NCBI RefSeq assembly: GCF_018977255.1
Contig: NW_024704747.1
Location: forward strand, 930,001 to 994,000
DNA length: 64,000 nt
Reading direction: 5' to 3'
Source of the DNA: Callorhinchus milii
Taxonomy: Eukaryota
Both the position numbers and the translations under genes were made by a program. Positions 230 to 5,204 of the stretch are shown in pieces. The notes beneath the pieces are model-generated. The model was given only the letters and a program-made list of their open reading frames with translations. It ran no database searches and was not told the DNA's origin. Numbering within the stretch: position 1 is the stretch's first letter; each line of letters begins with the position of its first letter.

Positions 230-3200
230 CTAATACTCTTCACCTTCTTCATCCTCGCCCTCAACGCTGTCTGCTCCGACCTCCTCATAGTCCTTTTCCA
301 AGGCCGCCATGTCCTCACGAGCCTCGGAGAACTCCCCCTCCTCCATCCCCTCCCCCACGTACCAGTGCACAAAGGCACGCTTGGCATACATTAGATCAAA
401 CTTGTGGTCAAGCCGAGCCCAGGCTTCAGCTATGGCTGTGGTGTTGCTCAGCATACACACTGCACGCTGCACCTTGGCCAGGTCACCACCGGGCACCACA
501 GTGGGAGGCTGGTAGTTGATGCCAACCTTGAACCCAGTTGGGCACCAGTCCACAAATTGAATGGAACGTTTGGTTTTGATGGTGGCAATAGCGGCATTGA
601 CATCTTTTGGCACTACGTCACCTCGGTAGAGCAGGCAACATGCCATGTACTTGCCATGACGAGGGTCACACTTGACCATCTGGTTGGCTGGCTCAAAGCA
701 GGAGTTGGTGATCTCAGACACAGACAGCTGCTCATGGTAAGCTTTCTCAGCCGAGATCACAGGGGCATAAGTGGCGAGAGGGAAGTGGATACGTGGGTAT
801 GGCACTAAATTGGTCTGGAACTCGGTCAGATCTACATTCAGAGCACCGTCAAAGCGAAGAGAAACTGTAATAGAAGATACAATCTGTGCAATTAATCGGT
901 TTAGGTTAGTGTAAGATGGACGATCAATGTCCAGGTTTCTACGACAGATATCGTAGATGGCTTCATTATCTACCATGAAGGCACAGTCTGAGTGCTCGAG
1001 GGTGGTGTGTGTGGTGAGGATGGAGTTGTAGGGTTCCACCACCGCTGTGGAGATCTGAGGAGCAGGGTAGATGGCAAATTCAAGCTTGGATTTCTTGCCG
1101 TAGTCAACAGAGAGACGCTCCATCAGCAGGGAAGTGAAGCCGGAGCCAGTGCCTCCCCCGAAGCTGTGGAAGATGAGGAAACCCTGGAGTCCAGTGCACT
1201 GGTCCGCCTACAGCAATGAAGGGGGAAGTACCTTGTTTAGTGTAGTTTTTCTTGATCATGTGTTCTGCTTTCGGGTGGACGTTATCTACCAGCCTGTTCT
1301 GCCAGTTTATTGGATCCCAACAGGTCACTGAATCCTATTTCCTCACCTCCTCTCCATATCCCTTGATCTCCTCACTTTCCAAGTGTCTCTCTCCCTTTTA
1401 AAAACTAAATTAATTCTATCTTCACACCTTTCTGGAGCAGTGAGCTCCACAGTTGGACCACCCTCTCTCTATATGAAATAATGTTCCTTTTCCAATGAAA
1501 GTGAATAGAATTGGTTTCCTTTAGACAGCATTGTCCCATGAAGTTCGTTTGTGAACTTGACACTAATTTATTTCAATGCGGCCATGGTTTGGGAAAAAAA
1601 CATTCCACCAATAAATGTGCNTTTTTTTTCTGATCAAAGTCAATTGGTAAAAAAACAATGTACTGTGTACGTCTGGAAACCCAACTGGCTATCTCACGAA
1701 CATACTCAACGTCAATACAGCTGAGAGATAAGTGAATGTTCCAAATTAAATCCTAATTTTTGCCAAATTTACCTGTTACATGGTGTTGAAACCACCCCAT
1801 CCGCACTCTTGATGTTCTTCTTTTGCTCCACAAAAAGACCCAGAAAATACCTAGCGTTTTAATTTGCGAATTGAAATGGGCCTTTGCAAGGACAACACAG
1901 TCCTGAGATACAATTGAAAAAACAGTCCAATTTTCCACCTCAAGACCACTTTCACTCTTTCCTCCATTTTGTGCAACATTTAAGATGATCAAAATGGCGA
2001 AAAAAATTATTACAATTCAGCCTCAACCTGTATTGGCAACCACAAACCACATGACAGACTATTTTATATCTTAAAAGTCACAATGCAGTCACGATGCAAT
2101 GAGTTTTGATTGCTGCCGTACATGCACTTTAAGCAAGGTTAGTTAAGACTGGAGTTACGATATTTGAAAGCGTTGCCAGTCAAATGTCCCAATAATTAGT
2201 TTCAAACATGCGTTAGTAGACCGTGAGCTAAGTGTTGAGCTATTTAGCTAGACAGGGCACGTCCTTGTAAATAACATACAAGAACGTTATTCAGCCGTGA
2301 CAGTGGGGGAAGTACAAAAAAGTAAATATTTCCCTCAGAATGTAAAATCCTAAACATAAGCACCAAGGTATAGCAAGGCCTAGCTCAGTCTCTGATATGA
2401 AACATTTTCACGAAAGAATCCACCGAACTCCTAGACTGGTTGACTGAGAATTTAATGGTAAGTTATCTATCATAAAATCCTGACCTTGAAATGCATCAAA
2501 GCAATAGTTATTTTGGAATGCTGTGTGCAGTTCCAGTCACCGCAATATAAAAAGGATATTGCAGCCATTGAGAGGATTCAGAGGAGGGCAACCAAAACGA
2601 TTCAGGGGATGGACGGACTGGACTACGAAGAGCGATTAGATAAGCAGGACATGTTCACACTGGAGAAGAGGGTTAAGGGGCAATATGATTACGGTCTTCT
2701 GGAGGGACCAGATAATGTAGACCATGATAAGCTGTTTTATCTTGTACTGAATTGTAGAACTAGAGGACATGGCCTGCGATTGAAGGGGGAGGTAAATTAA
2801 GAAAATGTCTGTGGAGATCTACTAGATTCTGTTATCTACATGCGCGGTCAGTCCAGTGGCAGAAACAGGGTACTGGGACACTGATATAGATCTCAGAACA
2901 GACACTCTCTCTCTGCTGTATTATCCAGGTGATATTGCAATGCTCTACACCTTCATACCAGCTCATGCAGGGCAGAGACACCCATACAGGGGTGAGGGCG
3001 GGCGGTACCTGAGAGCTGTGGATGGATGGGCACCAGCAGCTAGTTTGGAAACTATAAGAAGGCATTTCACTTGTGGCTTTCAACACGCATCAAGGAGATG
3101 TGATCTTTTAGTTACCCACTCACTCACTCCCTAGTCAGGAGAGAAACACAGCTTTGCAGATGTGGAGGGAAATCTCTGAAGCCAGTGTCTGACTCGACCC

Positions 3201-5204
3201 ATTTCTGCGTCACGTCCTCTAGTAAAATATATGAAAATAGATGGTATGTGAGTCATGTTGTGGTTGGAATGCAAGAAATACTCTTTTTTAAAATAACATA
3301 CTACATTCAGCCCTGATTATGACAGATGTGGGAGTGCGATATAAGTGAAGACTTTACCAGTTTACGAATCCTGTCCAGAACCAGGTCAATCAGCTCTTTA
3401 CCAATGGTGTAGTGCCCACGAGCATAGTTGTTGGCAGCATCTTCCTTTCCGGTGATCAGCTGTTCAGGGTGGAACAGCTGGCGGTAGGTACCACTGCGGA
3501 CCTCATCTGCAATAAGGAATTTCAAGACATCAGTACCCGTGAGCCAAGAGAGGAAGGGCTGATAGTCTAAATGGATTTTGATAAGAGTAGATAGGGAGAA
3601 ACTATTCCTCTGGCGGGTGGGTCGGTAACCTGAGGGATAGGTACTTGAAAAGGAAAGATTTGCAGGGCTATGGGGTAAGTGCGGGAGAGTGAGACTAGTT
3701 GGATAGCTCTTTAAGGAGCTGGCACAGGCACGGCTGTGTATTTTGTGGTAGCCAATTAATTGCGTACAGTGACCCACAAACAGTGATGGATTGAGTAATT
3801 TATTTTTGGTGGAGGGATTATTACCCCTAATATATTATATTAACTTTTTCAGAAATGATACAATTGAATATCAAGAGCAATTTGAAAAAAAATACCACAC
3901 ACATACACATTAATAATTTCCAACTCCAGATTGGGTAAGACATATTGACTCAAGACACAGATTGCTGGTGGTGCAACGGCACTAAAACCCATGGTCAAGC
4001 CGACCTTCGGCCATGGGTCAAGTGATCAAGTCTGACTCACTGACGCCATGTCTATAAGGAATGGCCTATTTCACTTACCACTTACCAATTACAGTGGATT
4101 CCAAATCGACAAACACAGCGCGTGGGACATGCTTCCCAGCTCCCGTCTCACTGAAGAACGTGTTGAAGGAGTCATCGCCCCCTCCAACTGTCTTATCACT
4201 GGGCATCTGTCCGTTAGGCTGGATGCCATGTTCCAGGCAGTACAGCTCCCAGCAGGCATTGCCTATCTGGACACCGGCTTGGCCAACATGGACAGAGATA
4301 CACTCACGCTGTGGGAGCAAAAAGAGCCCATTATCGGAACAAAGGCAAAACAAGAGTTCAAAATACAATTGACCGCACCTGTGGCTTCTCTGCAGGAAAT
4401 GGTGATGCAGCTCAGAAACAAAGCTGTTCACACAATGCAACGTTAGATTGTCGGCAGGTGATGCAAACTGGAACAACTTAACCGGATACCGGGGAGAAAA
4501 GCTCAACTCGGCGCCACAGTCACCGCTTCCTTAAGGCACCGCTCTCAAGAGATTAAAATTTTTCGCATTCAAATACCGTGCGCTCCCCCTCCGCGTAAGC
4601 CTTTCGCCCTCCCTCGCCTCCCTCCAAAGGCACATCTCAAGACCCTGCTCTGCGACCGCGCCTTCGGTCACCCTCCTGCCCCCACCCCTCCCGATCCCAA
4701 CCCCCACCCCTCCCCCACCAGCTCGGGTCCAAATCCCTGACTGCCCAGCGCCTCGGGAAATCTCCTCTCCACGCGGTAGTATCATTTATTGTCGTTGGGC
4801 GTTTATTTATTGATTGTGAACTGGAACCGTGGAAGTTAAGGGTTGGGTCCTGGCGGAGCCCATTTCAAAATGGATGTCCCAACCCCCCGGTTAAGACATC
4901 AGGAACAGGGAGGGCGGCCATTCTGCGCCGCGGTTCGCCAACTCCCCCACCTGGGCCCCGTCTGCCTTGACCGACCAGACGTCGATCCCCACCAAAGCTG
5001 GGAACACCCAACAGCAATCGTACGAACCCCTGCGCTCGGCACGGCGCGTCCCCCGGGGTGAGTGACTAAGCAAGCGCGCGGCTCAAGCGCGAGGCCAAGG
5101 CCCGAGTCTCCTCAGCCACAGCCTCCAAACACAACTCTGCCCTGTGACCCTCTCCCCTTCACACACACACACTCGCGCCCCCCCCCCCCATCCCCGGTTA
5201 CCAT
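230..5204 (-). CDS. TUBA: Alpha-tubulin gene A, 450 aa; exons 5204-5202 (ATG), 4308-4086, 3506-3358, 1207-230; tail [15 protein letters not shown]
   Basis: Exons translate to alpha-tubulin ([13 protein letters not shown]..., GGGTGSG, ...EEY). Exon sizes 3/223/149/978 and GT-AG junctions match the vertebrate TUBA structure. The ATG-only exon 1 (AGAATG|GTAACC) lies in a CpG island and is the least certain exon. Confidence 0.93.
2505..2810 (+). mobile_element. CR1-type LINE fragment (C-terminal end of ORF2)
   Basis: The translation [38 protein letters not shown]...TRGHGLRL is typical of the CR1 ORF2 C-terminus. Confidence 0.8.

Follow-up and report, generated by a model that had tools for sequence, protein, structure and literature searches.

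In a 64,000-nucleotide (nt) stretch of the Callorhinchus milii genome (contig NW_024704747.1, positions 930,001 to 994,000; hereafter the window), we found that exon 3 of an alpha-tubulin gene, gene A, can be spliced onto a block inside its intron 3 that carries an early in-frame stop codon and that recurs, nearly unchanged, in intron 3 of a second alpha-tubulin gene, gene C. We favor the reading, with a probability of about 0.55, that this block is a non-coding alternative exon acting as an unproductive-splicing switch, which would divert a few percent of the transcripts from alpha-tubulin. Cells keep tubulin within narrow limits, and after transcription the known means of doing so is TTC5-dependent decay. 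If the favored reading is true, exon 3a of ACTG1 would have a tubulin counterpart, namely a stop-carrying exon in use in two alpha-tubulin genes, and this exon could allow the tuning of single isotypes despite their near-identical coding sequences and common MREC tag. So far, the reach of such a switch is limited to two of 11 genes in one species.

Splicing onto the block of gene A was seen in sequencing runs. Fourteen runs of one organism contain the gene; ten of them are RNA by guess, and the RNA status is on record for none. Logan contigs of the four best guessed-RNA runs (X1-X4) were aligned to gene A intron 3 with 40-nt exon edges. Normal exon 3-4 joints were present for gene A in X2 (depth 339.6) and X4 (depth 910.4) and for gene C in X1 (depth 2870.7) and X4 (depth 1371.8), contig depth being a poor measure of abundance, and these joints indicated that the runs contained spliced RNA. 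Two of the four runs also contained a joint from 3218 to 3358 in gene A, which skipped 139 nt with CT..AC ends, corresponding to GT-AG on the minus strand. This joint had a depth of 12.9 and 21 letters on its short side in X2, and a depth of 4.6 and 30 letters in X4, where the contig showed no differences from gene A. A preliminary description of this DNA had predicted an exon 3-block junction in gene A, and the joint in X2 and X4 fell exactly at the predicted AG. The block occurs only twice in the genome, each time with the upstream intron in place, so that a spliced DNA copy was not the source of the joint.

Alignment of the gene A and gene C blocks revealed 198 identical positions of 207, with nine substitutions and one 3-nt gap. 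The match had an E-value of 8.6e-106 and a score that none of 500 shuffles reached, and no other BLAST hit between the two introns fell below an E-value of 0.5. Both blocks started directly after TAG and ended at CTCTCAG/GTAC, so that canonical AG and GT edges were found at the block in both genes; the coordinates, lengths and motifs given in the preliminary description were all reproduced. Exon 3 ends in phase 0 with 375 coding nt upstream, and in both genes the joined block reads TGA at its third codon, as had been proposed earlier. Stops were present in all three frames of both blocks. The stop at codon 128 lies 201 nt before the predicted junction of the block and exon 4, which is beyond the 50-55 nt rule if the donor is used.

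To describe the splice sites, donors were scored by their pairing with the genome's own U1. Pairing of the block donor with U1 was confined to the six positions from -3 to +3 and gave -7.1 kcal/mol in both genes, which was inside the range of the real exon-3 donors here (-5.3 to -11.1 kcal/mol). GT sites matching this score were rare in the downstream intron (3 of 110 in gene A and 1 of 76 in gene C). The exon-3 donor of gene A was the weakest among 10 alpha-tubulin genes, with -5.3 kcal/mol compared with -7.7 to -11.1 kcal/mol in the others. Inside the block, two tandem GTGAGT sites with the same sequence in both genes formed U1 duplexes of -7.3 and -6.8 kcal/mol. On the acceptor side, gene A had no other AG between -64 and -2, the conservation spanned this AG-free branch and acceptor zone of approximately 60 nt, and the acceptor tract was U-rich yet short. 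The branch-like A residues were located at -31 and -35 in gene A and at -14 and -18 in gene C. The previously noted CTCAC branch motif was present in both genes; its A lay at -31 in gene A, whereas in gene C it was no farther from the acceptor than -14. For gene C, the sequence makes TGAC (-18) a more plausible branch site than CTCAC (-14).

The remaining parts of the two introns had been described as largely unrelated apart from approximately 45 nt upstream. This was correct for most of their length, which could not be aligned, but the immediate flanks of the block were decayed homologues. In particular, the upstream flank, which separates the acceptor zone from exon 3 (78 nt in gene A and 88 nt in gene C), was homologous, with 3 of 500 shuffles aligning as well, and so was the downstream flank after the donor (50 nt in gene A and 44 nt in gene C; 1 of 500 shuffles). 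The next 200 nt beyond the downstream flank were not homologous (398 of 500 shuffles). BLAST revealed no match between genes A and C in intron 2 or the 3' regions and a single weak match in intron 1 (70% over 109 nt). Substitutions were found at 10 of 251 sites in the block and acceptor zone compared with 20 of 108 in the flanks (Fisher p = 3e-5), and 10 of 55 fourfold sites differed in exons 2 and 3 taken together (p = 7e-4 against the block and acceptor zone). The high identity stopped no more than 4 nt from the CAG/GTA donor; as MAG/GTR occurs 113 times in 128,000 nt, the chance of one lying within 5 nt is approximately 1%, a figure calculated after the fact.

Under the favored reading, the weak exon-3 donor joins the TAG of the block, 139 nt downstream, instead of exon 4, 2,150 nt downstream, as seen for gene A in two of the four runs. 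The block donor would then act slowly, owing to its pairing with U1 at only -3 to +3 and to competition from the internal tandem GTGAGT sites, and RNA with the block and an unspliced downstream intron would build up. This partly spliced RNA may be held and degraded in the nucleus, or it may finally be spliced to exon 4, giving an mRNA whose stop at codon 128, placed 201 nt before the last junction, would trigger nonsense-mediated decay (NMD) dependent on the exon junction complex. With either fate, the transcript would be lost for tubulin synthesis. Selection, probably aided by gene conversion, may have preserved the element in genes A and C ever since they were duplicated. As for the regulator, tissue-specific splicing factors would be more likely than the sensing of free tubulin. 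A wider version, in which the block is a conserved splicing off-switch of alpha-tubulin genes at the ancestral PTPRN-TUBA4A-STK16-type cluster, stemming from an old duplication, shared across cartilaginous fishes, responsive to tissue or microtubule state and controlling isotype dosage independently of TTC5, appears doubtful to us.

The downstream intron was covered in all four runs. The cover was even in X1 and X2 and reached into exon 4, and one X2 contig was continuous from 2596 into exon 4. In X2, one contig with a depth of 6.1 spanned 3198-3279. In X1, the gene C block was present as a separate contig with the gene C letters and the 3-nt gap. No contig covered 3219-3342 in X1, X3 and X4 or 3164-3218 in X1. 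These gaps were not used as evidence; the X1 cover, with a summed depth of 44.6, broke off at 3163, an indication that real sequence drops out, and a filter removes some contig records. Counting of 31-letter words gave a further, indirect view: exons made up 0.27 of the searched stretch, in agreement with the share of 0.26-0.29 found in X5-X7, and introns 1 and 2 together made up 0.30. Exons plus intron 3 explained the whole share of X2, X3 and X4 (residual -0.03 to -0.08), and X1 had a residual of +0.09. This indirect word counting suggests that intron 3 was retained selectively.

The searched genome comprised 991.5 Mb, in which an exon 3 query identified 11 alpha-tubulin genes with identities of 88-100%. 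The DNA search revealed two copies of the block, and a 23-nt block pattern with up to two mismatches likewise matched twice. A block profile found nothing in genes B, D and E of the window, in the six alpha-tubulin loci that two further contigs carry, or in the 10 kb beyond gene A, so that the block is carried by two of the 11 genes. With only two genomic copies, an origin from a transposable element or another repeat, which the preliminary description had raised as a high-copy fragment, was rejected. The Rfam scan placed the block in no family at the gathering score, and at E-values up to 10 there were three weak unrelated hits on both blocks; in the whole window, the gathering score was reached by four tRNA-like heads of short interspersed elements only. 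Neither the two blocks nor the opposite strand folded better than shuffles (z = -1.18, +0.55 and +0.01). An antisense exon was rejected because plus-strand splice edges were not common to genes A and C, and recursive splicing was rejected because the exon 3-block joint did not rebuild a GT and no joint led to the AG/GT at the block end. A metagenome scan with the 23-nt core gave no matches, which says nothing about conservation.

We observed patchwork conversion among genes A, C and D (and E; 230-4308, 15184-18825, 29304-31729 and 45132-47441), the introns of which could not be aligned. The near-identical pairs changed from exon to exon, being C and D in exon 2, A and D in exon 3, and A and C in exon 4. 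Between genes A and C, 5 of 33 fourfold sites differed in exon 2, 5 of 22 in exon 3 and 7 of 153 in exon 4, and between genes C and D the count for exon 2 was 1 of 34. Exon 4 of genes A and C contained identical runs of 287, 167 and 119 nt, and the block contained one of 81 nt. As judged from these sequence comparisons, gene conversion is real within the alpha-tubulin cluster.

Several observations weigh against the unproductive-splicing reading. A block-exon 4 joint, starting either at 3009 or at one of the GTGAGT sites inside the block, was found in none of the four runs, although Logan contigs drop rare paths and no NMD-blocked run is listed; the block-exon 4 junction, which had also been predicted earlier, was thus not seen. 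Instead, gene A contigs continued unspliced through the donor in all four runs (2760-3054, 2760-3196, 2722-3041 and 2870-3218), and a gene C contig did so in X3. The four runs contained no acceptor joint for gene C, and both runs with the gene A joint came from one study, P1, while X1 and X3 were without it. The joint depth was small compared with that of the normal exon 3-4 joints (12.9 compared with 339.6 and 4.6 compared with 910.4), and depths of this order can also arise from cryptic splicing noise. Contigs built from 31-mers cannot phase the spliced acceptor and the unspliced donor, which lie 210 nt apart, and the intron cover may include DNA or nascent RNA. Because nine of the 11 alpha-tubulin genes are without the block, a general control of tubulin by it is ruled out. 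In addition, the fourfold divergence of exon 4 was equal to the divergence of the block (p = 0.80); exon 4 is thus as alike as the block, and conversion alone can give the identity of the block.

On that basis, the block might be a neutral conversion tract or duplication relic, an alternative that the preliminary description had itself raised. Conversion would preserve the similarity of the two genes over 270 nt of intron, and the weak exon-3 donor of gene A would leak now and then to the nearest usable AG, giving splicing noise. The patchwork among the exons of A, C and D, the low joint depth and the unseen donor use are all in keeping with this, and conversion spanning introns has been documented for TUBG1 and TUBG2 (PMC2720389). 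However, the tract is separated from exon 3 by the 78 and 88 nt of decayed homology, exon 3 itself has five sites that differ between genes A and C within its last 14 nt, no other intron segment of the two genes is alike except for the weak match in intron 1, and splice signals stand at both edges of the tract, one of which is used. We consider this explanation unlikely, though deserving of attention. Less likely still is an acceptor-only arrangement in which the donor is never used, so that RNA would end either in a terminal exon approximately 2 kb longer, with the stop at codon 128 and a 3' untranslated region of more than 3 kb, or at an intronic poly(A) site; such RNA would be removed by nuclear decay or by NMD of long 3' untranslated regions, with no cassette involved. 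This is the literal pattern of the contigs, in which the acceptor joint is present, the donor is read through in every run and the X2 contig runs unbroken into exon 4, and poly(A) hexamers are found in the downstream intron (four in gene A and one in gene C). It leaves unexplained why the identity stops at the CAG/GTA donor in both genes. Logan contigs are, moreover, simplified by SPAdes-like rules (bioRxiv 10.1101/2024.07.30.605881), and few copies would be expected of a junction that is sensitive to NMD.

Selection in two co-regulated genes might instead have kept an intronic enhancer or another DNA-level element, with splicing being incidental. The conservation resembles purifying selection, the block contains the E-box-like CACATCTG, and intronic cis-elements are known in tubulin genes (PMC12868001); the conserved segment nevertheless takes in the branch and acceptor zone, stops at the donor and has its acceptor used at the exact block edge, which renders this alternative improbable. 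Even less probable, to a degree that we give it very little weight, is a structured intronic RNA (of the H/ACA small nucleolar or small Cajal body type) or a coding mini-exon for an N-terminally shortened tubulin starting from the ATG at 3065. ANANNA, ACA/AUA-like words and UGAG repeats do occur in the block, but H/ACA and C/D small nucleolar RNAs and small Cajal body RNAs were dropped, as no Rfam match lay at or near the gathering score and the sense-strand folding scores were those of shuffles. For the mini-exon, the final 27 codons of the block (3009-3089, minus strand) form an open frame that continues into that of exon 4. Downstream of the last in-frame stop, genes A and C differ by five substitutions, four of them synonymous, and by an indel of 3 nt (p = 0.017, noticed after the fact). 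Against this, no database protein of 71-2000 residues shared three 5-residue words with the frame, which is weak evidence, and the RNA seen here enters the block from exon 3, hence five stops precede the open frame.

To relate the unproductive-splicing reading to known systems, we compared the block with cases from the literature. Exon 3a of ACTG1 (Drummond and Friderici 2013, PMC3789816) undergoes regulated unproductive splicing, with partially spliced intron-3 products. Like the block, it is an alternative exon that carries a stop codon and lies within a conserved part of intron 3 in a highly expressed cytoskeletal gene. The two differ in that exon 3a measures 41-45 nt and has both junctions sequenced, whereas the tubulin block measures 207-210 nt and has its upstream junction only. 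Moreover, exon 3a is conserved across mammals, regulated in muscle and increased 7-fold by an NMD block, whereas the conservation of the tubulin block is that between two paralogues. Decoy exons in retained introns, as in SF3B1 (E4e), OGT, ARGLU1 and SNRNP70 (Parra et al. 2018, PMC6097662; Parra et al. 2020, PMC7373989), are likewise conserved non-coding cassettes in introns of more than 1 kb with several nearby 5' splice sites, and their junctions are described as rare without NMD inhibition. The SNRNP70 decoy mainly has its downstream intron retained (PMC7373989), as in the gene A contigs. Most decoys have a retained intron on both sides, but the two-sided retention typical of the class was absent from the gene A block, whose upstream 139 nt were removed in X2 and X4, and the tandem donors of the tubulin block lie approximately 115 nt inside it, unlike decoy donors at the exon end. 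The block in genes A and C is a probable tubulin case of this already known class of unproductive or decoy exons.

The autoregulation of tubulin by TTC5-SCAPER-CCR4-NOT targets mRNA that is already spliced, recognizes it at the ribosome by way of the nascent peptide, and applies to every isotype (PMC12868001). As with the proposed role of the block, tubulin mRNA is lowered after transcription, and genes A and C, both of which encode an N-terminal MREC, should be subject to this route as well; the block would differ in acting at splicing and in two of the 11 alpha-tubulin genes. TUBG1 and TUBG2, which evolve in concert by gene conversion (PMC2720389), resemble genes A and C in being neighboring tubulin paralogues in direct orientation with exon and intron patches that are alike. 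However, their tracts cover exons and whole introns, whereas genes A and C share an isolated, splice-edged intron patch in otherwise unalignable introns. A 2026 review names alternative splicing only as a layer of tubulin control still to be uncovered (PMC12868001). Our full-text literature search, which included few subscription journals, found no report of a tubulin gene with a poison, decoy or cryptic exon, and supplementary genome-wide tables may list some.

Features of genes A and C, of the shared block and of the flanking exons. Positions refer to the window unless another locus is named.
Feature	Position	Strand	Remark
Non-coding alternative exon (block), gene A intron 3	3009..3218, 210 nt	(-)	5' edge spliced, 3' edge predicted
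Paralogous block, gene C intron 3	17738..17944, 207 nt	(-)	present in X1 contigs; splicing not seen
First in-frame stop TGA	3210..3212	(-)	codon 128, coding nt 382 of spliced RNA
Predicted donor CAG/GTACCG, block 3' edge, gene A	3003..3011	(-)	use not seen
Tandem internal GTGAGT sites, 4 nt apart	3116..3130	(-)	A and C agree at the first two; use not seen
Acceptor zone, gene A	3219..3279	(-)	TGAC/CTCAC branch-like, U-rich tract, TAG; used
Acceptor zone, gene C	17945..17988	(-)	43/44 identical to A apart from 17-nt gap
Upstream sub-intron, gene A	3219..3357, 139 nt	(-)	removed by exon 3-block GT-AG joint
Downstream sub-intron, gene A	1208..3008, 1.8 kb	(-)	covered by contigs unspliced through predicted donor
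Gene A	5204-230	minus	
Start codon, exon 1 end, gene A	5202..5204	(-)	N-terminal MREC encoded; from sequence
Exon 2, gene A	4086..4308	(-)	
Exon 3, gene A	3358..3506	(-)	contig joints also place it
Exon 4 coding part (last exon), gene A	230..1207	(-)	best PDB matches TUBA1B/1A chains
Gene C	exon 2 at 18825 down to 15184	minus	exon 1 probably at 27833
Exon 3, gene C	18077..18225	(-)	
Exon 4 coding part, gene C	15184..16158	(-)	
Protein-kinase exons	59385-62122	minus	Pfam
Tyrosine-phosphatase exons	L009 3262-5462	plus	Pfam

The window contained five alpha-tubulin genes of four exons each, A, B, C, D and E, and was rich in repeats. Intron 3 measured 2,150 nt in gene A and 1,918 nt in gene C. Pfam matches showed that the cluster was flanked by tyrosine-phosphatase exons on one side and by protein-kinase exons on the other. 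We take this order to resemble that of PTPRN, TUBA4A and STK16 at human 2q35.

The genes of the cluster also differed in their coding regions. Gene B (7434-13437, minus strand) was a divergent alpha-tubulin of 447 residues with a nucleotide difference of approximately 17% from genes A, C and D; it had no Lys40 and a short C-terminal tail ending in GQVEY. In gene E, which is arranged head to head with gene D, the Lys40 loop had a 3-residue insertion and an altered sequence (45132-45363, plus strand), and the tail of this gene's product resembles that of TUBA4A. Position 72 was Ser in gene A (DLESTVID; 4086-4100, minus strand) and Pro in genes B-E. Elsewhere in the genome, a 29-kb contig (G000:C924) carried three alpha-tubulin genes (L006, L007 and L008) whose last exon was broken near residue 352, which is probably due to a further intron, unlike in the four-exon genes of the window. 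A GC-rich promoter was observed at 27500-27870, where exon 1 of gene C probably lies as well; the ATG of this candidate exon at 27833 would imply a 9-kb intron 1. On the opposite strand, a few bases from the candidate exon, we found a strong donor-like site, and transcription here could be antisense or bidirectional.

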